Shown: positions 27,136 to 37,096 of the stretch, in pieces
How the letters are laid out: every line of letters begins with the position of its first letter
Position numbering within the stretch: position 1 is the first letter of the stretch
Assembly (NCBI GenBank): GCA_020073005.1
Contig: JAIQFX010000044.1
Location: 20,878-84,877 of the forward strand
Reading direction: 5' to 3'
Source: Terriglobia bacterium
Lineage (GTDB): Bacteria > Acidobacteriota > Vicinamibacteria > Vicinamibacterales > CAVVIG01
Length of the DNA stretch: 64,000 bases
The notes under the pieces: generated by a model
Database searches by the model: none
What the model saw: the letters and a program-made list of their open reading frames with translations, nothing else
Told to the model about the DNA's origin: nothing
Position numbers and translations under genes: made by a program

Positions 27136-30100
27136 TCACTTCGCGCCGCGTCGCGCCGCCGCGGTGTGACGCGCAATCAGCCCGAAGTTCTTCGGCGTCG
27201 CGTCCCGCTCGAGCGCCTGCAGGCGCGCCACGCCCGCGGCAGTCTGGCCCGACTGCATCTCGATCTCGCCCAAGGCGAGCCGCGCCTCGAACTGCGGCCA
27301 CACCATCAGCCCTTTGGTCGCGGTCGCGAGCGTTGCGTTCAGCGCTCTTATTCCATCAGCGCTCTTACCGGTGGCGGCCGCCGTTCGCGCGCCCGTAATG
27401 TCGAACACCAGTCGCGTGTCGCGCGGCAACGTGGCGAGAGCCGCCGCCGGCAGCGACTGCGCACGGGCCACCGCCTTTGCGGCCTCGACCGCCTTTCCTT
27501 CTGCGAGCAGAGCTCGCGCGACCGCGTCGAGCGCGAGCGCTTCACCGTCGGCGCGCTTTTGCGCGGCGAACTGATCGGCGATCGTGCGCGCCGCAGTCTC
27601 AGCGTCGGCAGGCCGGCCTTCCTCGATCGCAATCTGGGCGAGCGCGATCTGCGTCTGCGCCGCGCCGAATTTGTCGCCGAGCTGCTGCCAGCCCGCGAGC
27701 GCCGCCTCGTAGGTCTTCCGCGCCGCAGGCACATCTCCCTGGAGCATCAAGACCTGACCCAGGCGCGACTGCGCGCTGAGCGTGCGACCGCGGCTCGCGT
27801 TGGCCGCGAGCGCGTCGTCGAACGCCTTCTTCGCCTCGGCGAGCCGACCTTGCTGCTGCAGCCCGATACCGCTGTTGGTCAGCGCGCTCGCCACGCCCTC
27901 CTGATCCTTCAGGTCGCGATACACCGCCACGGCTTCGTCGAAGTTCTTCGCCGCCGCCGCGTAGTCGCCTTCCTGCAACAACGCGAACCCGAGATTGGTG
28001 AGCGCGCCGCCGATGCCGGTCTTCCTGCCGATCTCGCGCTGAATCTTCAAGGCGTCCGCAAACAGCGGCCGCGCGCCAGCGGCATCGCCGCTGTTGAGGA
28101 GCAGGCTCGCAAGGTTGTTCAGAATGTCCGCCTCGCCGCTCTTGTTGCCAACGTCGCGATAGCTGGCGAGCGCGTCCTCGTACATCTTTCTGGCGCCAGG
28201 CAGATCGCCCTGGTAGACGCTGACGTTGCCCATGTTCTGCTGCGTCTGCGCGATGCCGGTCCGGTTGCCGATCTGCCGGTACGTCGTGAGCGCCTGCGCG
28301 TGCATGTCACGCGCCTCGGCGAGCTGGCCCCGCTGCCACAGAATCGTGCCGATGTTGTTCATCGTCGCGGCGACGCCGGCGAGGTCGCCGATCGCGCGCC
28401 GGATCGTCAGCGCCTGCTGGAACATTTCACGCGCCTGATCGAGATAGCCCTGATCCTTCAGCAGCAGCCCTTGGTAGTTCACGGCGCGCGCGACGCCCCC
28501 GCGGTCGCTCGCCGTGACGAAGATCGACTTGGCGTCCTCGAGCGCGGCGGCGGCGTCCGGCAGCTGCCCCAGATTCCGCAGCGCCCACCCTTCCGCGAGC
28601 CTGGCGTTGCCCACGATCAACCGCGCGCCAGTTTTCGTCCCCTTGGCGGCCGCGTTCGCCGCGGCCGTCCGTTCGCGCTTGAAGTCGGAGAGGGCCGCCG
28701 CTGTATTCGCTTCAGCGAGGTCGATGCGCGGATCGTCGTTCGCCGGCGCCGGCAGCTTGCGAAGGGCGTCGAGCGTCCCCAGCGCTTCACGGCCCTTGCC
28801 TGCCGCCGTCTGCGAGCTGGCCAGCCGCAGCCCGTAGTCCAGACTGTCGGGAAAGAAGCCGAACAGCTTTTCGTACGTCGCGGCCGCCTGATCCCATTCC
28901 TGCGCCGCTTCGTGGTACCGCGCTTCGACGACGTAGCGATCCTCGCGGCTGGCGCTCGTGGACAGATCGAACGCCTTCTTCGCTTCAGCGCGGGAGTTCC
29001 CGTCGTAGCCCATCGCGGACCAGGCCGCCGCGAGCGCCGTGTGCGCAAGCGCATGCTTCGGATCCGCGATCACCGCGCGCTCGAGCAGACCCTTCGCGCC
29101 CAGCGCGTCGGCCACGCGCAGCTTGGCCACGCCTTCGGCGTACAGCCGGGCGGCTTCGGCGTTCGCCGGCAGCGCCGCCTGTACGCTCTGCGCGTCCGCG
29201 GCCGAGAGCGCGCCGAGCCCGAGCTTGGCGCGCAGCTGCTCACCGGCTCGCGTCGCCAGATCGATGAGGTCGGATTCACCGACGGTTTCGCCGACGGTCG
29301 CGATCGTCTCGCCTGATGTCGTGTCCTGCATGCGCAGATCGAGACGGACTCTTCCGCCGCTGGCGAGATACGACCCGAGCACGATCACGTCCGTTCCAAG
29401 ATTTGCGCGAATCCGGCCGAGCGTGTCCTTCGGATACGCGTCAGCCTCGCTCAGCCCCAGGTCCGTCTTCACGCGCGCCACGGTGTCGCTGCTGCTCGTC
29501 TGCAACTGTTCGCCGGCGCCGAGCTCCGTGGTGAGCATTTCGGAAAGCGCCGTCGAGATCCACGCGCTCTCCGGCTTCGCGGAGCTGTTCTTGAAACCGA
29601 TCACGGCGACGCCGCGCCGCGCCTTCACGGCCGCTGCCGCGGGACGTCCGGCGTTTCCAGCGGAACTCGCCTGCGATCGGACGAGCGACGGGACGTAGCG
29701 AACGCCGAGCGCCGTCACAACCAGGAGCGCAGCCGCGCCCGCGCCGATGACGAGCGCGCGCTGTTTTCGCCGCCGCCGCTCATCGAGCTCGCGCCGGCCG
29801 GCGGCGACTTCACCGCCCGCGAGCGCCTTGAGGACGTCGCCCGCGCTGGAAAAGCGATCCGCCGGATTGCGTTCGAGACACCGCAGGATGGTCGCTTCCC
29901 AGCGCTGGTCGAGATCCTTCACATGCGTCCGCGGAGGCGGCGGCGGCTCGCTCAGTCTCTTGACCGCGGTCGTCAACGGCGAGTCGCTCGTGAAGGGGCG
30001 CCGTCCCGTGACCATCTCGTACATGACGATGCCGAGCGCGTAGATGTCCGCGGCCTCGGTGATCGTGCCGCCGGTGACCTGCTCCGGCGCCATGTAGTCC

Positions 30101-30801
30101 GGCGTGCCGAGCGTGTCGCCGTACGTCGTCAGCGCCGTCCTCATCGTCGTGCCGCCACTGCCGCCGCTATAGGCCAGCCCGAAGTCGGTGACGACGGCCC
30201 GTACATCCTGTCCACTCTTGGACGGGACGAGCATCACGTTCGCGCTTTTCAGATCGCGGTGCACGATGCCGGCCGCGTGCGCGGCGTCGAGCGCGGCGGT
30301 GACCTGCGCGATGATCGCGATCGCATCCGCGGGCGCCATGCGGCCTTCGCGTTCGAGCCGCTCGTGCAGCGTTTCACCGCTGAGCAGTTCCATCGTCAGG
30401 AACGTGAGCCGCTCGACGTCGTCTGAACGCTCCGCAACGTCGCTTGGGCGCTCGGGCTCCGGCCACTGGTGATGGAAGATGTCGAAAATGCGCGAGACGT
30501 TGGGATGCGTGACCTTGCGCGCCAGCTGGATCTCGCGCTTGAAGCGCGCCAGCGCCATCGGGTCTTCCGCGATGTCTGGACGGATCGTCTTGAGCGCGAC
30601 GTTCTCGTTCAGCTCGATGTCGTGCGCTTCGTAGACTTCGCCCATGCCGCCGCGGGCGATGAAGCGCACGATCGTGAAGCGCTCGGCGAGCACCAGTCCG
30701 GCCTCGAGCGCAGGGGGCGCGACACGCGGCGCGCGGTTGACGCGTCCCGACTGGCTGAGCCGCAGCGTCGCGCGATCGTCCGGAACGTTCTCGTTAGACA
30801 C
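27136..30801 (-). CDS. Hanks-type Ser/Thr protein kinase with TM helix, TolB_N-like segment and TPR array
   Basis: RGGMGEVY, ALKT, HRDLKSAN, TDFGLA, YMAPE; TM near aa 350; many TPR repeats. Confidence 0.93.
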   Translation of the reverse strand: MSNENVPDDRATLRLSQSGRVNRAPRVAPPALEAGLVLAERFTIVRFIARGGMGEVYEAHDIELNENVALKTIRPDIAEDPMALARFKREIQLARKVTHPNVSRIFDIFHHQWPEPERPSDVAERSDDVERLTFLTMELLSGETLHERLEREGRMAPADAIAIIAQVTAALDAAHAAGIVHRDLKSANVMLVPSKSGQDVRAVVTDFGLAYSGGSGGTTMRTALTTYGDTLGTPDYMAPEQVTGGTITEAADIYALGIVMYEMVTGRRPFTSDSPLTTAVKRLSEPPPPPRTHVKDLDQRWEATILRCLERNPADRFSSAGDVLKALAGGEVAAGRRELDERRRRKQRALVIGAGAAALLVVTALGVRYVPSLVRSQASSAGNAGRPAAAAVKARRGVAVIGFKNSSAKPESAWISTALSEMLTTELGAGEQLQTSSSDTVARVKTDLGLSEADAYPKDTLGRIRANLGTDVIVLGSYLASGGRVRLDLRMQDTTSGETIATVGETVGESDLIDLATRAGEQLRAKLGLGALSAADAQSVQAALPANAEAARLYAEGVAKLRVADALGAKGLLERAVIADPKHALAHTALAAAWSAMGYDGNSRAEAKKAFDLSTSASREDRYVVEARYHEAAQEWDQAAATYEKLFGFFPDSLDYGLRLASSQTAAGKGREALGTLDALRKLPAPANDDPRIDLAEANTAAALSDFKRERTAAANAAAKGTKTGARLIVGNARLAEGWALRNLGQLPDAAAALEDAKSIFVTASDRGGVARAVNYQGLLLKDQGYLDQAREMFQQALTIRRAIGDLAGVAATMNNIGTILWQRGQLAEARDMHAQALTTYRQIGNRTGIAQTQQNMGNVSVYQGDLPGARKMYEDALASYRDVGNKSGEADILNNLASLLLNSGDAAGARPLFADALKIQREIGRKTGIGGALTNLGFALLQEGDYAAAAKNFDEAVAVYRDLKDQEGVASALTNSGIGLQQQGRLAEAKKAFDDALAANASRGRTLSAQSRLGQVLMLQGDVPAARKTYEAALAGWQQLGDKFGAAQTQIALAQIAIEEGRPADAETAARTIADQFAAQKRADGEALALDAVARALLAEGKAVEAAKAVARAQSLPAAALATLPRDTRLVFDITGARTAAATGKSADGIRALNATLATATKGLMVWPQFEARLALGEIEMQSGQTAAGVARLQALERDATPKNFGLIARHTAAARRGAK

Positions 30802-32296
30802 GAGTGCCTGCTGCAGGCTGTCGAGCCGCCATCATCTTCGCGCGGATCTGGATGATTTCATCCTCGCACCGGTCGAAGGCCTCGACGACGGCGGGATCGA
30901 ACTGCTTGCCGGGCTCGGCGCGGATGCGCCGGCCGGCTTCGTCGGCGGGAAGCCCGGCGCGATACGGACGATCCGACGTCATCGCGTCGTAGGTGTCGGC
31001 CACGGCCATCAACCGCGCGTGCAGATGGATGCGTTCGCCGGCGAGGGCGTCCGGATAGCCCTTCCCGTCCCATCGCTCGTGATGGCCGCGAATCGAGGGC
31101 AGCGATTCCTGCAGGAACGGCAGACCCGACAGCATCTCGTGACCGATCGTGACGTGACTTTCCATCATCGCGCGTTCGTCCGGATCGAGATGCCCGGGCT
31201 TCTGCAACACGCGGTCGGGAATGCCGACCTTGCCGATGTCGTGCAGCATGCCGGCGCGACGGATGATCTCGAGCGCGGGCGCGTCGAGTCCGGTGAATCT
31301 CGCGAGGGCGAGCGTGTACGCGGTCACGCGCTCCGAATGACCGGCCGTGTAGCGATCTCTGGCTTCGATCGACTTCGCAAACGCCTCGAGCGTCGATCGG
31401 AAATGCGCCTCGCGATCGGCGTACAGCTTGCCGGTCTCGAGCGCGGTGGCGGCATGCGCGGCAAAGCCGGAGGCGTACTCGACGTCGGCGGGCGCGAATC
31501 CCGCGCCGCCATGACGGTCCGCGTACAGCGCGCCGATCGGGCCGGTGCGGCCGAGCAACGGTACGCAGATGATGCTGCGCGCACCGGCCTTCATGATGCT
31601 CATGGCGTCCTGAAACCGGCGATCGCCGCGCACGTCCACGAGGACGACGGCCTCACGGGCGTCGATCGCTTCGCGCACGACTGTCGCGCTGGCGAATTCC
31701 GATACCGACGCGTATTCGCCCGCCGGACGCACGGCCCGCGGCGCGAGCGTCCCGGTCCCGGCGTCGTAGAACAGGATGGCGCTGCGGTGCGGCTTCAGGA
31801 TCTCGGTCAGCCGGTCGAGCACGTGCTCGAGCAGGACACCCAGATCGGCAAACGCCATCAGCTCCCGGCTGGTGGCCAGAAGCGCCTCGAGCACGCGCCG
31901 ATCGACCTTCGTGTGGGCGTCGGGCGCCATCGCAAAGCGCGTCATCGATCCCCACGCCGGCGCGTCAGCGACGCTGCGGGACGGCGCGGTGCCGTTGTCG
32001 GCGAGGAACTCGAGGGCGCCGATCGTCAGCTGATCGCCGGCGGCGATTCGCGCCGTGGAGACGCGCGCGCCGTTGACGAAAATGCCGTTCGTGCTGCCGA
32101 GATCCTCCGCCGTCACCTCGCCGTCGCCGGCCATCGTCAGCCGCATGTGCTGCCGGGACAGGCTGATGTCGTCGATGGAGATATCCGCGCTCGCCCCGCG
32201 GCCCACGACCTTCGATTCACCGGGATTGACGACGATCGTCGGCACCGCGCGATGCGCCGTCAGCGGTCTCAGCCGGATGAGCGGCATCGGGTCCAT
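30794..32296 (-). CDS. FHA-GAF-HD-GYP cyclic dinucleotide phosphodiesterase
   Basis: FHA (VVGR, SRQH, DLGSTNG), GAF, HSERV, LHDIGK, HHERWDGKGYP, DAMTSDRPYR. Confidence 0.92.
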   Translation of the reverse strand: MDPMPLIRLRPLTAHRAVPTIVVNPGESKVVGRGASADISIDDISLSRQHMRLTMAGDGEVTAEDLGSTNGIFVNGARVSTARIAAGDQLTIGALEFLADNGTAPSRSVADAPAWGSMTRFAMAPDAHTKVDRRVLEALLATSRELMAFADLGVLLEHVLDRLTEILKPHRSAILFYDAGTGTLAPRAVRPAGEYASVSEFASATVVREAIDAREAVVLVDVRGDRRFQDAMSIMKAGARSIICVPLLGRTGPIGALYADRHGGAGFAPADVEYASGFAAHAATALETGKLYADREAHFRSTLEAFAKSIEARDRYTAGHSERVTAYTLALARFTGLDAPALEIIRRAGMLHDIGKVGIPDRVLQKPGHLDPDERAMMESHVTIGHEMLSGLPFLQESLPSIRGHHERWDGKGYPDALAGERIHLHARLMAVADTYDAMTSDRPYRAGLPADEAGRRIRAEPGKQFDPAVVEAFDRCEDEIIQIRAKMMAARQPAAGTRV

Positions 32297-32299
32297 TCT

Positions 32300-33769
32300 C
32301 TACGCTCTTTCGATCCGCTTGAGTTTTTCGACGAGCGTGGTGCGCTTCAGATTGAGCAGCTTCGCGGCCTGCCCTTTGTTCCCGCCCGTGCGCTCGAGCG
32401 CGCGCTGCACGAGGTCGCGCTCGATCCCGCCGATGAAGTCGTCCAGGTCCAGTCCGCCTTCGGGCAGCGTGACCGCCGACGCCAGCGCCGCTTCCTGCGC
32501 CTGCTGAATCTCGTTCGGCAGATCGCCGGCGTCGATCTGCGCGCGGCCCGCGCTGAAGGCGACCGCGCGCTCGACCGCGTTCTCGAGCTGCCGCACGTTG
32601 CCCGGCCAGTGGTACGCCATCAGCCGGCGCATCGCGTCCTGCGACACGCTTTTGCGGACAGATCGCTCGCCTGAAAGACTCGCGCTACGTTCGCCCGCGC
32701 TACGTTCGCTCGCGCTACGTTCGCCCGCGCTACGTTCGCCCGCGCTGCGATCGCCGCTGGCGAGCTTGTCGAGGAAATGCTGGACCAGCAGCGGGATGTC
32801 CTCTTTGCGCTCGCGCAGCGGCGGCAGCTGGACCGGAATCACGTTCAGCCGGTAGAACAGGTCCTCGCGAAACGTCCCCTCGGCCACGAGCCGTCCGAGA
32901 TCGCTGTTCGTTGCCGCGATCACGCGCACATCCACCTTGATGGTGTGATTCGAGTCGCCGACGCGCTCGAACTCACGCTCCTGCAGCACGCGCAGCAGCT
33001 TCATCTGCAGCGCCGCGCTCATCGTGCCGACTTCGTCGAGGAACAGCGTGCCTTTGTGCGCCTGCTCGAGCCGGCCCTGCCGGTTGCCGACGGCGCCCGT
33101 GAACGCGCCGCGGACGTGGCCGAACAGTTCGGCCTCGAGCAGCGTCTCGGGAATGGCGCTGCAATTGAGCGCGACGAACCGGTGCAGGCGCCGCGGACTG
33201 CCCTGATGGATCGCGCGCGCCACGACTTCCTTGCCGGTCCCGGTTTCGCCAGTAATAAGGATGGTGCTGCCCGTGGGCGCGACGGTTTCGAGCAGCTGAA
33301 ACAGCCGCGACATCGCCTGCCCGCGTCCGACGACGCCTTCGAAGCGATCGCGTTTCTCGAGCTGCGCCCGCAGGTACGCGTTTTCCGATTTCAGCCGGCG
33401 CTGTTCGATCGCCGAGTCGAGCACGTGGAGCAGCTCGTCGATCTGAAACGGCTTGCTGACGAAATCCCACGCGCCGCGCTTGATGGCTTCGACCGCGTCC
33501 TTCACGGTGCCGTAGCCGGTGACGACGATCGCGATGATGTCCGGATACCGTTCGACGGCGCCTTCGACGACGGCCGAACCGTCGACGCCGGGCAAACGGA
33601 GATCAGTAATGATGATGTCGAACGCGAAGTCGGCCAGCTTGGCGAGCGCCGCTTCGCCCGTGTCGACCTGCTCGACCTGATAGCCGCGGTCCGCCAGCTG
33701 CTCCGCGATCGCCACCCGCAGAGGGGCCTCGTCTTCGACCAGCAAGAGATGTTTTGTAGAATCAGTCAT
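32300..33769 (-). CDS. Sigma54-dependent response regulator (REC-AAA+-Fis HTH; NtrC/FlrC-like)
   Basis: REC (VEDE, TDLRLP, SKP), GETGTGKE, GAFTGA, FLDEV, WPGNVRQLEN, C-terminal HTH. Confidence 0.95.
   Translation of the reverse strand: MTDSTKHLLLVEDEAPLRVAIAEQLADRGYQVEQVDTGEAALAKLADFAFDIIITDLRLPGVDGSAVVEGAVERYPDIIAIVVTGYGTVKDAVEAIKRGAWDFVSKPFQIDELLHVLDSAIEQRRLKSENAYLRAQLEKRDRFEGVVGRGQAMSRLFQLLETVAPTGSTILITGETGTGKEVVARAIHQGSPRRLHRFVALNCSAIPETLLEAELFGHVRGAFTGAVGNRQGRLEQAHKGTLFLDEVGTMSAALQMKLLRVLQEREFERVGDSNHTIKVDVRVIAATNSDLGRLVAEGTFREDLFYRLNVIPVQLPPLRERKEDIPLLVQHFLDKLASGDRSAGERSAGERSASERSAGERSASLSGERSVRKSVSQDAMRRLMAYHWPGNVRQLENAVERAVAFSAGRAQIDAGDLPNEIQQAQEAALASAVTLPEGGLDLDDFIGGIERDLVQRALERTGGNKGQAAKLLNLKRTTLVEKLKRIERA
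32664..32755 (-). repeat. In-frame REP-like element plus five 15-bp tandem repeats inside the activator gene
   Basis: Unit cgcgctacgttcgcc at 32681-32755 encoding SAGER-type repeats; reverse complement of 32664-32688 matches 61621-61645 at 22/25 nt. Confidence 0.85.
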
Positions 33770-33895
33770 TTAGCGGAGCGCCAGTATTTTGACACTCGGC
33801 GGCCCCCCGTGTCCATATCCGGTCGTTCGCCTTCTTCACGTCCTGACTATTCCCGGCCCGGCCTCCCACCGATAGAGGGGGCTGGAGGAAAGAAC

Positions 33896-34114
33896 GTGGA
33901 GCGAAAAACCATCTCGATCATGAAGGCCTGTGAGCTGGTCGGCGTCAGCCGCCGCACGATTTACAATTGGCTCTCGAGCGGCAAGATCGAATACGTGCGC
34001 ACGGCCGGCGGTTCAGTACGCATCTTCGTCGACACGCTGTGGCGCGACCCGAACAACGCCAGTCGCCCCGCGGTCCAGACGATGTGGCAGACCGAAGGCC
34101 GGAATCAGGCCTGA
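33896..34114 (+). CDS. Single-domain excisionase/BldC-like (MerR-type HTH) DNA-binding protein
   Basis: GGAGG SD, GTG start, ISIMKACELVGVSRRTIYNWLSSGKIEYVRTAGGSVRI. Confidence 0.85.
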   Translation: MERKTISIMKACELVGVSRRTIYNWLSSGKIEYVRTAGGSVRIFVDTLWRDPNNASRPAVQTMWQTEGRNQA

Positions 34115-34368
34115 TGCCGCGTCCGTTCAGCGTCGAGGAACTGCTCGCCAGGGGACCAATGGACGAATCACCCGAATTGCGTCTCCTGTTCCACCGCCTC
34201 AACAATCAGCTCGGGATCATCCTGGCGCACGCAGAATTGCTCGAAGCGAAAGCGCCCGACGACATGAATCGGGCGCGAGCGGGCCAGGTTGTCTCGAGCG
34301 CGCTCGAGGCGATGGGCACCGCCAAGGAAATCCGACGTCTCGCCGCCCCTTCGGTCGATCCCCAGTAA
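34114..34368 (+). CDS. Stand-alone HisKA/DHp-like mini-protein
   Basis: LFHRLNNQLGIILAHAELL resembles an H-box helix, followed by a second helix; no ATPase domain; start 34114 or 34159. Confidence 0.7.
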   Translation: MPRPFSVEELLARGPMDESPELRLLFHRLNNQLGIILAHAELLEAKAPDDMNRARAGQVVSSALEAMGTAKEIRRLAAPSVDPQ

Positions 34369-34393
34369 ACTCACACAATAACGTAATTCAGCC

Positions 34394-34439
34394 GTCATTT
34401 TTTTGGCTGACTGGACCTGTAAATCGTCAAACAATTGAC
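34394..34439. promoter_or_regulatory. Tandem enhancer-like sites GTCA-N6-TGAC
   Basis: GTCAttttttTGGC 34394-34407 and palindromic GTCAaacaatTGAC 34426-34439, 32 bp apart, in an AT-rich island upstream of a sigma54 promoter. Confidence 0.6.
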
Positions 34440-34573
34440 GATATTGCGCTCGTTCGGACGCCATTCCGCAGCCGGGTCCAGAAATAGACCACGCCGATAA
34501 ATACCTGAAATAAAGCGTCTTAGCGTGTACTTCGTCGCGTTAGTGGTGAGCTCCAGAACACGAGCCCAATTGT

Positions 34574-34588
34574 TGGTACCGGCGTTGC
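34574..34588 (+). promoter_or_regulatory. Sigma54 (-24/-12) promoter of the FliA/WhiG gene
   Basis: TGGTAC-cggcg-TTGC fits TGGYAC-N5-TTGC; AGGAG SD at 34613. Confidence 0.7.
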
Positions 34589-34624
34589 GATAGCGCGCAA
34601 CTGTCGGAAACCAGGAGACACCAC

Positions 34625-35569
34625 ATGCGTGTTCAGCCCGTTGCCGCCAATCAGAACCGCCGTATCGTCGCCAGCTTGCCGTTTGTCGAGGCGCTGGCTC
34701 GACGAATGGCTGCGTCGATGCCGAATTCGATCGACATCGGCGATCTCGTGCAGGACGGCGTGCTCGGTCTCATCGATGCCGCGCATCGCTTCGATGAAGA
34801 TCGCGGCATCAAGTTCGAGACGTTCGCGGAACGGCGCGTGCGCGGCGCGATGATCGACGCGCTTCGCAAGGACGCGTGGCCCCGCGGCGTCCGCCGCCAG
34901 CGGCGCGAGCTCGACGCGGCCCGCGAAGCGCTGCGCCGCGAGCTGGGACACGAGCCGTCGATGGCCGACCTCGCCGCGCGCGTCGGCTCGGACGAGAAAC
35001 GGCTGAGCCGGACCATCGTGCGCATCAACACGATCGAAGCGACGTCGCCGCTCGCGACGGGCGAGCACATGGACGAGAACTCGCTGCCGACCGTGCTCGT
35101 GCCGTCGGAGCCCGACGCGCCGGACATGGCCTACGAAAAGGCCGAGACGCGCGACCGCGTGCGCGCCGCGATTCAATCGCTCCCCTGGCGCGAGCGGAAA
35201 GTGATCGGGCTCTACTACTACGGCGAAGTGACGATGAAGCAGATCGGCGCCGAGATCGGCGTCAACGAATCGCGCGTCTCGCAGCTTCATGCGCGCGCGA
35301 TCCGCCGCCTGCGCGACGCGATCGGCGACATGAACCCGCAGAAGATCGCCGAGATGCGCCGTCAGCTGATCGCGTTCGCGGTGAAGAAGCCGGTGATGGC
35401 GAAGGCGGACGTTCGCTCTGCGTATAAGCCGGACGCGACGATGACCGCCGAGACGGTCGCCACGCCGCACGCCGTCGTCCTGCCGTACAAGGCGACGAAA
35501 CGTACGGCGCCCGTGAAGGCGACGCTCAAGATGGCGCGGTCGCGGCAGGCAGTCGCGGCGGCGAGGTAG
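34625..35569 (+). CDS. fliA: FliA/WhiG-family (sigma28) RNA polymerase sigma factor with basic C-terminal extension
   Basis: DLVQDGVLGLIDAA.RFD, KFETFA..RVRGAMIDALR, LYYY.E.TMKQIG..IGVNESRVSQLH. Confidence 0.88.
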   Translation: MRVQPVAANQNRRIVASLPFVEALARRMAASMPNSIDIGDLVQDGVLGLIDAAHRFDEDRGIKFETFAERRVRGAMIDALRKDAWPRGVRRQRRELDAAREALRRELGHEPSMADLAARVGSDEKRLSRTIVRINTIEATSPLATGEHMDENSLPTVLVPSEPDAPDMAYEKAETRDRVRAAIQSLPWRERKVIGLYYYGEVTMKQIGAEIGVNESRVSQLHARAIRRLRDAIGDMNPQKIAEMRRQLIAFAVKKPVMAKADVRSAYKPDATMTAETVATPHAVVLPYKATKRTAPVKATLKMARSRQAVAAAR

Positions 35570-35572
35570 CGG

Positions 35573-37096
35573 TCAGGAGAGGCCGTCGCGCACCGCGCGC
35601 AGCAGGTCGCCCAGGCGGAACGGTTTCGCCAGCCACCGGCAGCCGCTCTCCTGAAGAAACTTCTCCGCGTCGGTGCCGGCCACGTCACCCGTGACGAAGA
35701 TCACGCGTTTGGCCAGCGCCGGCGCCGCGGACGCGAGCTCGCGCGAGAACGACTGGCCGTCGAGCCGCGGCATCTTCAAGTCACAAATCACCAGATCGAA
35801 CGGCTCGGCTTTGATCTTCGCGAGCGCCTCGATGCCGTCCACCGCGTGCTGGACGACGTAGCCCGCGTCGCGCAGCGCGTCGACGACGGCGCTCGCCAGC
35901 TTCGTCTCATCCTCGACGACGAGAATCGCCGCGCCGACGACCGCCTTGACGGGCTCGGACAGGCGCGCCTTCATGCCGCCCTCCGGCCCGAGCTTCCTGC
36001 CGCTGACCGGGACCTCGACGAAGAATGACGCGCCGGCGTTCGGACGCGACTCGAGCCGGATGCGGCCGCCGTGCTCCTGCACGATCGCGTACGCGACGGT
36101 CAAGCCGAGTCCCGTCCCCTTGCCGACTTCCTTCGTGGTGAAGAACGGATCGAAGATCTTCGGCTGCAGCTCGTCCGGAATCCCAGGGCCATCGTCGTTG
36201 ATCTCGAGAATGACGGATTCCTGCTCGGCGTTGTGCCACGTGCGCACGACGAGGACGCCGCGTCCGTGCGCCGACAGCATCGCCTGCTCGGCGTTGATCA
36301 CGAGATTCAGCAGCACCTGCTGGAGCTGATGGCCGTCCGCGAACACCTGCGGCAGGCCGGCGGCCAGCGCGTCGATCACGCTGATGTTGGTGACGCGCTG
36401 ATCGTACGCGCGCAGCGCCAGCGTTTCGCGGACCACTTGATTGATGTCCACCATCGCGCGCGTCGTCTGACGCTTGCGGGCGAAGGTGAGCAGGTTGCGG
36501 ACGATCCGTGCGGCGCGTTCGGCCTCCGACTGGATCGTCTCCACGCCGCGGCGCACCGGATCGTCGAGCGTGCGCTGCGACAACCGCTCGGCCCAGCTGA
36601 GGATCGTCGCCAGCGGATTGTTCAGCTCGTGCGCGACGCCGGACATCGTCTGGCCGAGCGCGGCCATCTTCTCCGCCTGCAGCAGCTGGTGATAAATGTC
36701 GCGCGTCTCGTCGTCGAGCTTCTTGCGCTCGCTCACGTCGCGGATCAGCGCCTCGACGCGGACCGTGCCGTCCTCCGCCGGCGGATCCGCGCGCGCCGTC
36801 AGCTCCACCCAGGCGGGATTGCCGTCCGCGCGGCGCAGGCGCATCAGATAGTTGTTCACCGATCCATCGGTCGAGAGACGCTCGACGAGCGCGACGCGCG
36901 CCTGCGGATCGACGAATCGCTCGTGATCGAACGGACGGACGTCGCCCTCCGGCGCCTCGCTCGGGTACCCGAAGATCAGTTTGAGGTGGGGATTGGCGGC
37001 AATCGTCGACGTGGTCGCGGGACCGATCGTCCCGATGTACACGCCTTCGTGCACGGCCTCGAACAGCCGCGCGAATGCCGATGCGCGTCGCTCCAC
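35573..37096 (-). CDS. Cytoplasmic PAS-HisKA-HATPase-REC hybrid histidine kinase
   Basis: PAS, AHELNNP, NLVINA, DDGPG, FFTTK..GKGTGLGL, REC (EDE, CDLKMP, AKP). Confidence 0.93.
   Translation of the reverse strand: MERRASAFARLFEAVHEGVYIGTIGPATTSTIAANPHLKLIFGYPSEAPEGDVRPFDHERFVDPQARVALVERLSTDGSVNNYLMRLRRADGNPAWVELTARADPPAEDGTVRVEALIRDVSERKKLDDETRDIYHQLLQAEKMAALGQTMSGVAHELNNPLATILSWAERLSQRTLDDPVRRGVETIQSEAERAARIVRNLLTFARKRQTTRAMVDINQVVRETLALRAYDQRVTNISVIDALAAGLPQVFADGHQLQQVLLNLVINAEQAMLSAHGRGVLVVRTWHNAEQESVILEINDDGPGIPDELQPKIFDPFFTTKEVGKGTGLGLTVAYAIVQEHGGRIRLESRPNAGASFFVEVPVSGRKLGPEGGMKARLSEPVKAVVGAAILVVEDETKLASAVVDALRDAGYVVQHAVDGIEALAKIKAEPFDLVICDLKMPRLDGQSFSRELASAAPALAKRVIFVTGDVAGTDAEKFLQESGCRWLAKPFRLGDLLRAVRDGLS

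Follow-up and report, generated by a model that had tools for sequence, protein, structure and literature searches.

A conserved DHp-like mini-protein at a sigma-54/sigma-28 regulatory locus of Vicinamibacterales

Genes and sites at the locus

The window is the whole 64,000-nucleotide stretch of DNA under analysis, and the region of interest lies at positions 32300-37096. It encodes an NtrC-type activator on the minus strand, an HTH protein, a very small protein (referred to here as the mini-protein) and a FliA/WhiG sigma factor on the plus strand, and a PAS-HisKA-HATPase-REC kinase on the minus strand. The genes for the kinase, mini-protein, activator and sigma factor were all found where an earlier note on this DNA had placed them. 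The title of that note gave a wrong gene order: along the DNA the genes run ntrC (-), HTH (+), mini (+), sigma (+), kinase (-). A fifth gene, of the HTH_17/excisionase type and directly 5' of the mini-protein gene, had not been named. The features are the following:

30794..32296, minus strand: FHA-GAF-HD-GYP protein (Pfam), 3-nt gap downstream of ntrC
32300..33769, minus strand: NtrC-family sigma-54 activator, REC - AAA+ - HTH_8 (Pfam)
33780..33793: GYCA-N6-TGRC-type palindrome GCCAGTATTTTGAC, third of the locus, in the ntrC/HTH intergenic region
33847..33875, plus strand: putative promoter of sigma-28 type for the HTH-mini operon (-35 element CTATTCC, 33847-33853; -10 ACCGATAG, 33868-33875)
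33896..34114, plus strand: HTH_17/excisionase-family DNA-binding protein, 72 aa
34114..34368, plus strand: mini-DHp protein of 84 aa (69 aa if started at the ATG at 34159)
34392..34442: tandem pair of enhancer-like sites, one degenerate (34392-34411), one perfect (34423-34442)
34574..34588, plus strand: sigma-54 promoter of the sigma-28 gene, TGGTAC-N5-TTGC
34625..35569, plus strand: FliA/WhiG-family (sigma-28) sigma factor, 314 aa
35573..37096, minus strand: hybrid histidine kinase (PAS)-HisKA-HATPase-REC, 507 aa
37850..39049, plus strand: GGDEF diguanylate cyclase (Pfam GGDEF, E 1.7e-46), conserved next to the kinase

Synteny is well conserved. The HTH and mini-protein genes are adjacent in 44/48 and 80/80 loci, ntrC is divergent in 47/48 and 78/80, and the kinase gene is convergent with the sigma gene in 41/48. 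The kinase occurs in 74 of the 80 mini-bearing loci, and its receiver is kept by 73 of these 74. The GGDEF neighbour is present in at least 19/80 loci, a lower bound because the flanks stop at about that point. The FHA-GAF-HD-GYP gene is seen in only 1/80 loci, most of the 4-kb flanks stopping short of its position, and its product is a candidate, not an established, member of the module.

The activator matches the Pfam models Sigma54_activat (E 3.1e-70), Response_reg (E 1.6e-24) and HTH_8 (E 3e-12). It has a Walker A motif at aa 174, an intact receiver Asp and, as had been claimed for it, an intact GAFTGA motif (aa 221), and it combines the REC, GAFTGA-bearing AAA+ and Fis-type HTH domains of NtrC-family enhancer-binding proteins. 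In the kinase, HisKA (aa 146-209), HATPase_c (253-363) and REC (390-502) were recovered, the H-box being AHELNNPL, while the PAS domain also ascribed to it is matched only weakly (E 0.001, under the cut-off). The closest curated matches of the kinase and activator are AtoS/ZraS and AtoC/ZraR. The sigma factor scores 197.1 bits with TIGR02479 FliA_WhiG (cut-off 189.6); its Sigma70 regions 2 and 4 are over the Pfam cut-offs, and region 3 scores 20.6 versus 25.3. It is the only gene in its genome above the FliA/WhiG family cut-off, and orthologues (58-100% identity) were found inside Vicinamibacterales only, with 401 genomes of the phylum searched. The HTH protein matches Pfam HTH_17 (E 3.6e-9) and TIGR01764 (42.1 bits, cut-off 28.8), and its gene has a GTG start with GGAGGA 6 nt upstream. 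A BldC identity was rejected, the model score being 24.5 where 77 is needed.

A free-standing DHp-like hairpin

The mini-protein carries the motif LLFHRLNNQLGIILAHAELL, with its His codon at 34192-34194, and its gene occurs once in its own genome. It is present in 360/401 genomes of Vicinamibacterales, an order of soil Acidobacteria, including 299/327 of high quality, and is a real, old gene rather than the decayed kinase fragment allowed for in the earlier note. At E<=0.01 the family comprises 7874 protein clusters, the best 120 of which have 81-99% identity and lengths of 81-90 aa; the public names shown are nearly all 'hypothetical protein', with one 'two-component sensor histidine kinase'. 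At E<=1e-3 there are 391 representatives, and the best 150 of them measure 55-182 aa and include no fused forms.

In the window, the HTH stop codon and the upstream ATG of the mini-protein gene share bases (TGATG). Together with the adjacency of the pair across loci, this could mean that the mini-protein works with the co-transcribed HTH_17 protein or has another phosphate-free role, but such a reading is highly improbable. The ATG at 34159, 45 nt further down, is the more widely conserved start, and the upstream one is missing altogether from several loci. Moreover, 4/48 loci have the mini-protein with no detectable HTH gene, and none was found beside its distant relatives.

The His is kept in 47/47 and 148/150 sequences and aligns on the kinase H-box His in helix 1, so the invariance that had been proposed as a check nearly holds. 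Among the 150 representatives, Asn at His+4 is kept in 150, Leu14 in 150, Glu26 in 149 and Arg40 in 149. At His+1, the acidic residue is replaced, most commonly by Arg, Gln or Thr. In HisKA domains, an acidic His+1 is reportedly required for the kinase reaction only, and Thr or Asn at His+4 for the phosphatase reaction only (PMC3510030).

The AF2 model (pLDDT 90.3) is a helical hairpin with helices at residues 5-30 and 35-62, and the chain ends 7-10 residues past helix 2. This is the form of a DHp, in which two antiparallel helices make a hairpin of some 60-70 residues. Curated models give no match to it, either in Pfam, HisKA included, at E<=10 or in NCBIfam at E<=1, and its profile found no kinase H-box among PDB sequences; homology to HisKA/DHp rests on hhalign and on genome-scale ranking. 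Compared with AHDFNNLL-type DHps of its own genome, hhalign gave a probability of 90% (E 1.5e-6). In the profile search of that genome, the H-box of the neighbour kinase led the non-self matches (E 0.0025), followed by another kinase (0.0053) and another mini ORF (0.006), and both kinase alignments span the H-box His. The nearest relatives outside the family are kinase H-boxes, and HisKA is annotated on 23% of members in one Atlas cluster. The top Foldseek rows include DHp domains from ZraS, GacS and ERS1 (TMq 0.70-0.75), none of the matches being at E<=0.001, since hairpins of two helices are common. The hairpin model, the His alignment and the hhalign probability support the claim that the mini-protein is DHp-like, and judged from sequence it appears to be a free-standing HisKA-type DHp hairpin of kinase descent.

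Like the HisKA (PF00512) DHps of the AHDFNNLL, CckA-like type, it is a hairpin of ~60 residues whose His lies near the start of helix 1. Its helix 1 shares with kinases of its own genome the His, Asn+3, Asn+4, Leu+6, Ile+9, Leu+10, Ala+13, Glu+14, Leu+15 and Leu+16. Unlike HisKA kinases, it has no sensor domain, ATP-binding domain or membrane part; the acidic His+1 is replaced, and the Pro at His+5 of the neighbour kinase is Gln.

Several other identities were rejected. For Hpt (PF01627), there is no Pfam match, and the model has two helices instead of a monomeric four-helix bundle. FlgM (PF04316) likewise gives no Pfam match. The c-di-GMP motif of RsiG, E(X)3S(X)2R(X)3Q(X)3D, reported on a coiled-coil helix (PMC8325347), is absent by eye from the mini-protein and from the family consensus.

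Conserved promoters and the sigma-28 connection

Three promoter or operator elements are conserved at the locus. The sigma-54 promoter TGGTAC-N5-TTGC is kept in 75/77 related loci, where shuffles give 0.05 expected, and in 44/46 of another set. The enhancer-like palindrome is kept in 65/77 loci (0.4 expected from shuffles). Its perfect copy in the window, ATCGTCAA-N4-TTGACGAT at 34423-34442, lies 148 bp upstream of the sigma-54 promoter, and relatives have tandem palindromes 147-150 and 179-182 bp upstream. The sigma-54 promoter and enhancer-like sites reported before the sigma-28 gene are present, far above chance, and the order-wide conservation of both backs the proposed sigma-54 to sigma-28 step. 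In 56/80 loci, the 160 nt upstream of the HTH start also contain a site of the GYCA-N6-TGRC type (0.9 expected from shuffles).

The third element precedes the HTH gene. CCGATA is found 26-33 nt before its start in 79/80 and 42/44 loci (2.55 and 1.05 expected), and TAAWC-N17-CGATA in 47/80 and 19/44 (0.05 and 0.0 expected). In a position table of 110 sites, C/T/A/A stand at -22 to -19 in 100/97/86/78; the window's own -35 (CTATTCC) deviates from TAAW. The sigma-28 promoter consensus of E. coli is TAAA-N15/16-GCCGATAA-like, and the conserved CTAAW-N17-CCGATA has a spacer one base longer than this consensus. As the HTH-mini operon carries a putative sigma-28-type promoter, the mini-protein would be produced by the cascade and in turn act back on it; the conserved promoter is thus predicted to close a feedback loop.

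The earlier note had also proposed motility as an output. Motility cannot mean flagella here, because a genome-wide search found neither flagellin nor FlhA. Sigma-28-like sites are present before type IV pilus genes, and type IV pili are a candidate output.

The flgM gene also has a sigma-28-type promoter, and that of the mini-protein operon could accordingly mark an anti-sigma factor or modulator of sigma-28, either FlgM-like or RsiG-like and armed with c-di-GMP, whose kinase motif is an inherited scaffold. The mini-protein gene lies just upstream of the sigma gene order-wide, the genome has no FlgM match, and the module has GGDEF and HD-GYP genes on its flanks. Some distant relatives sit in flagellar clusters or operons of other Acidobacteriota, and another is found directly before a FliA-like gene in G082, so that a role as a sigma-28 partner would fit too. 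Precedent comes from Rubrobacter, where WhiG is reportedly sequestered, and type IV pili controlled, by RsiG proteins, which are small and helical (PMC8325347). This reading is nevertheless improbable. Besides the missing RsiG motif and FlgM match, the His and the Asn at His+4 are among the residues that the order family has in common with the three distant relatives. Other DHp-only ORFs adjoin receiver proteins with no sigma gene near: the second one of the window's own genome runs into the start of a further REC-AAA+ activator gene and is adjoined by a REC-HD-GYP protein and a hybrid kinase, and a 68-aa ORF in another family, a weak match (E 8.2e-5), lies 3 nt before a REC-HD-GYP gene. Nor would joint loss with the kinase REC be expected of a sigma-28 modulator.

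Receiver links and the proposed role

In the genus g54, both the mini-protein and the kinase REC are missing from all three genomes (3/3). This co-loss counts as a single evolutionary event. Elsewhere, the module is intact after loss of the mini-protein in four or five lineages: activator, sigma factor and HTH protein are intact in G222, G012 and G038, activator and sigma factor in G532, and the kinase, with its REC, in G222, G532 and G038. The own genome has 9 hybrid kinases, found with home-made profiles, and one Hpt match, in a 944-aa frame on contig C12 that shares the size and contig of one hybrid kinase; a free-standing Hpt was not found in the genome. The DHp-only ORFs beside receiver proteins, the co-loss and the near-absence of Hpt are counted as a link to receivers.

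The earlier note regarded the mini-protein as a phosphate shuttle. As an obligatory bridge between kinase and activator, it would have phosphate pass from kinase His to kinase REC, mini-protein His and activator REC as the sole route. A hybrid kinase with an intact receiver, the lack of a free Hpt, the near-invariant His and the co-loss in g54 are consistent with such a shuttle. So is the structure prediction that the note had suggested. For two mini-protein chains with the activator REC, the predicted complex scored 0.52 (median of 3 runs) compared with 0.10 for the best of 3 controls; on a benchmark, the score mark is reached by 58/80 solved complexes and 2/110 mismatched pairs, and at scores <=0.60 by only 7 of the 80 solved complexes and by both mismatches. 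The runs agreed in at least 86% of contacts, with a partner pLDDT of at least 85. As kinase-regulator complexes have already been solved, the pass may reflect memorised structures, and the prediction lends weak support to a contact of the mini-protein with the activator REC. An obligatory shuttle is nonetheless unlikely: activator and sigma genes remain intact where the mini-protein is lost, which argues against a bridge of this kind. The AtoS/ZraS and AtoC/ZraR types, which the kinase and activator match best, transfer phosphate directly, and with a sigma-28-type promoter on its operon an obligatory upstream step would need its own output.

RetS is known to block GacS through DHp mimicry in a mixed bundle. 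The mini-protein might inhibit the hybrid kinase in the same way, pairing with its DHp and blocking autophosphorylation. The GacS DHp, from the RetS co-complex, is fourth in Foldseek, the neighbour kinase H-box is the best non-self match in the genome, and induction by sigma-28 would yield negative feedback. Helix 1 of the mini-protein, however, resembles AHDFNNLL-type kinases more than the AHELNNPL of the neighbour; mimicry does not need a near-invariant His and Asn at His+4, nor does it predict co-loss with REC. This possibility is consequently considered very unlikely.

The preferred reading, given slightly less than an even chance, is that of an accessory DHp-only protein exchanging phosphate with receivers of the module and tuning activator phosphorylation, not that of an obligatory shuttle. 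Flat distance correlations between the mini-protein and candidate partners count against it, as does the REC kept in G222, G038 and G532 after loss of the mini-protein. The mini-protein presumably pairs into a four-helix bundle. With the His and the Asn at His+4, the phosphatase residue of HisKA kinases, retained and the acidic neighbour for autophosphorylation lost, it would swap phosphoryl groups with the C-terminal REC of the kinase and/or the REC of the activator, thereby setting the amount of phosphorylated activator. The phosphorylated activator would then bind the tandem palindromes and fire the sigma-54 promoter of the sigma-28 gene. Sigma-28 would in turn transcribe the HTH-mini operon, with pilM-Q as candidate further targets. 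Mini-protein and kinase receiver would form an accessory feedback branch.

Spo0B and ChpT consist of a DHp-like hairpin with a transferable His, followed by a C-terminal CA-like alpha/beta domain. The mini-protein resembles them in having such a hairpin, which would pass phosphate between two receivers. It stops after the hairpin and seems dispensable to the module in several lineages. The description as a minimal ChpT-like protein stands as regards the DHp-like fold and the kept His, but the CA-like domain that defines ChpT/Spo0B is absent, and the mini-protein is therefore placed outside this family. Two sources describe 'HisKA, no HATPase' proteins, which P2CS calls 'possible incomplete histidine kinases' (PMC5847659) and for which a phosphoacceptor, phosphotransfer or phosphatase role has been proposed (PMC5847659; bioRxiv 10.64898/2026.02.27.708494). 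As described there, they share with the mini-protein a HisKA-like domain, a conserved His and the lack of an ATPase; the archaeal ones have N-terminal PAS/GAF domains, whereas the mini-protein is a bare hairpin and belongs to a single tight family that spans the order and keeps its synteny.

With respect to the circuit, the module shares with the WhiG-RsiG-c-di-GMP switch (PMC8325347) a sigma-28-family factor in a non-flagellated host, pili as candidate output and a connection to c-di-GMP, whose enzymes are neighbours. The likeness to flagellar hierarchies is that an NtrC-type activator drives a sigma-28 gene. Such sigma-54 to sigma-28 hierarchies include FlrA/FlrC, FleQ/FleR and FlgR. In contrast to both, the own genome lacks flagellar genes and FlgM, the mini-protein lacks the RsiG motif, and the small regulator is kinase-derived.

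On the boldest reading, the mini-protein might be the first natural free-standing DHp acting as a phosphotransfer or phosphatase protein, a third kind beside Hpt and Spo0B/ChpT, born in the flagellar regulation of Acidobacteriota and kept by the non-flagellated Vicinamibacterales, which would use it and the sigma-54 to sigma-28 cascade together as a type IV pilus switch that regulates itself. As a joint claim, this is possible but doubtful. If the hairpin does exchange phosphate with receivers, no natural working part of a two-component kinase could be smaller, and it would offer a simple handle on hybrid-kinase signalling where genomes have almost no Hpt, and a compact part for synthetic phosphorelays. 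The circuit would represent a flagellar-type hierarchy outliving the flagellum, in which a sigma-54 activator leads to sigma-28 and sigma-28 to its own modulator, and a role would be given to a large family to which Pfam is blind and whose public names, as shown, reveal no function.

Gene content and order of the module

The module comprises the genes of an activator, an HTH protein, the mini-protein (a bare DHp hairpin of 69–84 aa), a sigma factor and a hybrid kinase. Together with the adjoining genes, these are arranged in the window as follows.

Genes of the module and its surroundings (window coordinates)
30794–32296, minus strand: FHA-GAF-HD-GYP gene, following ntrC
32300–33769, minus strand: NtrC-family activator (ntrC) with REC, a sigma-54 AAA+ domain carrying GAFTGA at aa 221, and HTH_8
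33896–34114, plus strand: HTH_17/excisionase-type gene, 72 aa, divergent from the activator gene, with a GTG start and GGAGGA 6 nt upstream
34114–34368, plus strand: mini-protein gene, following the HTH gene
34625–35569, plus strand: FliA/WhiG sigma gene (TIGR02479, 197.1 bits against a cut-off of 189.6)
35573–37096, minus strand: hybrid kinase with HisKA, HATPase_c and REC and a weak PAS match, convergent with the sigma gene
Adjoining the kinase gene: GGDEF gene

[quoted passage not shown] The gene order given there had to be revised to ntrC / HTH, mini, sigma / kinase, with an HTH gene that had not been named. This arrangement, in which ntrC and the kinase gene lie on one strand and the three genes between them on the other, is conserved in the loci of relatives. 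Among 48 loci, ntrC is present in 47, HTH in 44, sigma in 46 and the kinase in 41, the misses falling mostly at contig or locus ends; among 80 independent named loci, the corresponding counts are 78, 80, 77 and 74.

Several further features were observed at the locus. In many relatives (for example L112:2671–3660, and many of loci L109–L132), ntrC and HTH are separated by an inserted gene, some 1.1 kb long, for a D-2-hydroxyacid dehydrogenase; the window has none at this place. The low-complexity insertion at aa 338–370 of the activator (window 32300–33769, minus strand), built of repeated SAGER-like units (SGDRSAGERSAGERSASERSAGERSASLSGERS), divides the AAA+ lid match into two stretches. The FHA-GAF-HD-GYP gene is followed, with an 8-nt overlap, by the gene of a 1221-aa Ser/Thr kinase with TPR repeats (27136–30801, minus strand), and the pairing of an FHA domain with such a kinase hints that the module receives an additional input. 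For the HTH protein, membership in BldC was rejected (24.5 bits against a cut-off of 77).

The mini-protein: distribution, fold and ancestry

The mini-protein gene is real and old. The earlier note had allowed for its absence from relatives; it is single-copy in the own genome (GCA_020073005.1) and occurs in 35 of 41 relatives. Within the order Vicinamibacterales, 360 of 401 genomes have it (a tally counting two unpublished genomes, G674 and G694, both of which match and neither of which enters any other result), as do 299 of the 327 high-quality ones. Strong matches (E<1e-13) are confined to the order in a sample of 401 phylum genomes. The protein has no Pfam match even at E≤10 and no NCBIfam match even at E≤1. 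At E≤0.01 it matches 7874 protein clusters, the best 120 of which show 81–99% identity and lengths of 81–90 aa; the names shown among these are 'hypothetical protein' and one 'two-component sensor histidine kinase'. When the profile was run against 1.84 billion representatives, 391 proteins passed E≤1e-3 and 265 passed E≤1e-10, with no fused form among the best 150 of the 391, all of 55–182 aa. Which start codon is used is uncertain. An ATG that overlaps the HTH stop in the window (TGATG) would give 84 aa, and the start common to the order, at window position 34159 and 11 codons ahead of the His, gives 69 aa. In one relative a stop stands just before the common start, and in three there is no start further upstream.

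An AF2 model from a 47-sequence alignment predicts a hairpin with helices at residues 5–30 and 35–62 (pLDDT 90.3). No PDB structure reached E≤0.001 in a Foldseek comparison with this model; near the top of the ranking stand the DHp domains of ZraS (rank 1), GacS (rank 4, RetS co-complex) and ERS1 at TMq 0.70–0.75, in the company of unrelated hairpins. Among PDB sequences, the family profile gave four matches, the best at E 0.088 and none a kinase H-box. In the own genome, with the ORFs of all six frames searched, the same profile has as its best non-self match the H-box of the neighbouring kinase (E 0.0025); next come another kinase (E 0.0053), another small ORF (E 0.006) and yet another kinase, with the H-box His inside the alignment in all three kinases. 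Comparison by hhalign with the AHDFNNLL-type DHps of the own genome gave a probability of 90% (E 1.5e-6), and in the ESM Atlas the mini-protein falls among Acidobacteriota clusters of 67–73 aa, in one of which 23% of the members carry HisKA. By virtue of these ties to kinases, the mini-protein is a kinase-derived DHp. A recent fragment of the neighbouring kinase, whose H-box (AHELNNPL) is of another type, it is not, which speaks against the decayed-kinase origin considered earlier.

The His proved nearly invariant: His12 is kept in 148 of 150 representatives (the best 150 of 391). Leu14 and Asn16 (His+4) are kept in all 150, and Glu26, Arg40 and Ala41 in 149. At His+1, the three commonest residues are Arg (108), Gln (20) and Thr (9). 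In HisKA kinases, according to one report (PMC3510030), an acidic residue at His+1 is needed for the kinase reaction only, and Thr or Asn at His+4 for the phosphatase reaction only. By analogy with this other family, the mini-protein would thus lack the residue specific to the kinase reaction but retain the one acting on receiver~P. That the protein instead inhibits the kinase through mimicry, an alternative already named in the earlier note, is considered quite improbable.

Free-standing DHp-only genes recur beside receiver proteins. On contig C1 of the own genome (L063:6649–6852, plus strand), a second such ORF of 68 aa (LLHQFKNHLAIVVGFCDLLL) matches many kinase DHps at E of about 1e-8. With its stop codon this ORF overlaps the start of a further REC-AAA+-HTH_8 activator gene (L063:6852–8237), and genes for a REC-HD-GYP protein, a kinase, a hybrid kinase and a single REC surround it. 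In a third family of the phylum (genome G150, L240:1480–1686), a 68-aa H-box hairpin ORF, a weak match (E 8.2e-5), stands between a gene for a CRP-type regulator and, across a 3-nt gap, a REC-HD-GYP gene.

A separate group of proteins of about 80 aa occurs in 3/3 genomes of family f29 of the phylum (G067, G082 and G049; L222, L223 and L224). The f29 profile, run against the phylum, has the Vicinamibacterales mini-proteins as its next-best matches, and the mini-protein as query matches few small ORFs outside the order, the f29 ORFs being some of them. All three f29 proteins retain the His and the Asn at His+4. One f29 gene immediately precedes a FliA-like gene and neighbours MCP and CheR genes. 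The other two belong to flagellar operons: the first lies immediately upstream of fliL, the second falls between flgE and fliO; fliO-fliP, and in a single case fliR-flhB-flhA as well, lie beyond. A word-index search with the distant relative from the flagellar cluster returned just two proteins. From the f29 relatives and their flagellar neighbours, the family appears to be older than the order and to have arisen in a flagellar context.

Promoters and a candidate output of the cascade

The sigma-54 promoter and enhancer-like sites previously described at the sigma gene are conserved. The spacer separating the mini gene from the sigma gene contains TGGYAY-N5-TTGC in 44/46 and 75/77 loci (shuffles, 0.05), and palindromes of the form GTCAN-N4-NTGAC occur 147–150 or 179–182 bp upstream of it in 65/77 loci (shuffles, 0.4). 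These palindromes are arranged as a tandem pair some 32 bp apart, a spacing like that of the NtrC sites at glnAp2. A palindrome of this type stands upstream of the HTH gene in 56/80 loci (shuffles, 0.9). As a conserved element of the mini-sigma spacer in the window, GCCGATAA was rejected, being present in only 5/76 loci.

A new finding is a putative sigma-28-type promoter on the HTH-mini operon. CCGATA is present 26–33 nt before the HTH start in 79/80 and 42/44 loci (expected, 2.55 and 1.05), with CTAAW at a fixed distance from it, and TAAWC-N17-CGATA precedes the gene in 47/80 and 19/44 loci (expected, 0.05 and 0.0). Such a promoter would make the mini-protein an output of the very cascade that holds its gene. 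A role as partner of the HTH protein, or some other role, is regarded as very unlikely.

The own genome, 100% complete by marker genes, encodes one RpoN and, with a score above the family cut-off, just one FliA/WhiG; searches for Flagellin_N, FHIPEP and FlgM found none. That the mini-protein acts on this sigma factor, as an anti-sigma or sigma modulator, is thought unlikely. A second FliA-like gene of about 40% identity occurs in some genomes of the order (e.g., G038:C3:2945225–2945926), and the own genome has none.

A strict sigma-28 regular expression gave 0 matches in the own genome and 0 in the control. The position matrix built from the HTH promoters gave 14 matches above 14 bits against 9 in reversed/complemented controls, that is, no genome-wide enrichment. 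Two of these matches precede pilM and pilO of a pilM-pilO-secretin cluster (L189, C41:100500–109500). In 30 pilM loci of relatives (L192–L221), all 18 matches above 12 bits fall at two positions: 108–214 nt before pilM (12/30 loci) and 12–21 nt before pilO (6/30), the latter at or just beyond the end of the preceding gene; the rest of that strand and the whole opposite strand are free of such matches. The position of the pilO site is one caveat; another is that genome G026, whose locus has strong sites, lacks an orthologue of the window's sigma factor. Type IV pili are thus a candidate output of the cascade, in agreement with a report on WhiG in Rubrobacter (PMC8325347). For the motility output proposed earlier, pili are a candidate, and neither Flagellin_N nor FHIPEP was found in this genome.

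Genomes lacking the mini-protein and its proposed role

Orthologues of the window's sigma factor (58–100% identity) are restricted to the order in the 401 phylum genomes searched. Of the 41 mini-less order genomes, 20 were listed; among the mini-less genomes examined, nine also lack this orthologue (G002, G010, G026, G459, G463, G680, G431, G508 and G579; G514 is a tenth if counted), and in these the whole module is absent or unassembled. Four others, and genus g54, keep the module without the mini-protein. In G038, an inserted ORF of 454 aa, transposase-like as judged by eye (L068:9327–10691), occupies the very place of the mini gene between HTH and sigma; in G012, unrelated DNA replaces the mini gene, the activator, HTH and sigma genes are kept and no kinase is seen before the contig end; G222 has the module without the mini gene; and in G532, the HTH and mini genes are both absent. 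The kinase REC is kept in G038, G222 and G532. The module can thus be maintained in the absence of the mini-protein; this speaks against an obligatory forward shuttle of the ChpT type, as the earlier note had proposed; such a role is now judged unlikely.

Genus g54 (G366, G493 and G522) lacks the mini gene, and its kinase stops at about residue 366–389, without REC; in mini-bearing loci, 73/74 kinases extend to residue 502 or beyond. The joint loss in one lineage suggests that the kinase receiver and the mini-protein work as a unit, with the limited support of a single event. In a mirror-tree comparison of 51 loci with all domains, the mini-protein correlates equally weakly with every candidate partner (r 0.15–0.28; partial r −0.11 to 0.12). 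Of the structure predictions with receivers that the earlier note had advised, one was run, pairing two copies of the mini-protein with the REC of the activator, each supplied as a 41-row alignment. The score of 0.52 (median of three runs), against 0.10 for the best of three controls, gives weak support; the mark was reached by 58/80 solved complexes and 2/110 mismatched pairs, at 0.60 or below by 7/80 and both mismatches. Contacts agreed by at least 86% between runs, and the partner pLDDT was at least 85. This score may reflect likeness only, because kinase-regulator complexes have already been solved.

Home-made iterated profiles count about 40 kinases, 66 receiver ORFs and nine hybrid kinases in the own genome; the sole Hpt match lies in a 944-aa frame on contig C12, matching one of the nine in size and contig. 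The nearest known kinds to the mini-protein are HisKA DHp domains, Spo0B and ChpT, and the 'HisKA, no HATPase' proteins. Spo0B and ChpT have an extra domain, unlike the mini-protein. The open literature yielded no account of a free-standing DHp protein or of this circuit, except for the passage on 'HisKA, no HATPase' proteins, catalogued, with function untested, in PMC5847659.

The most likely reading, advanced tentatively, is that the mini-protein is an accessory DHp-only protein that would exchange phosphate with the receivers of the module and, together with the kinase's REC, may form a feedback branch induced by sigma-28.
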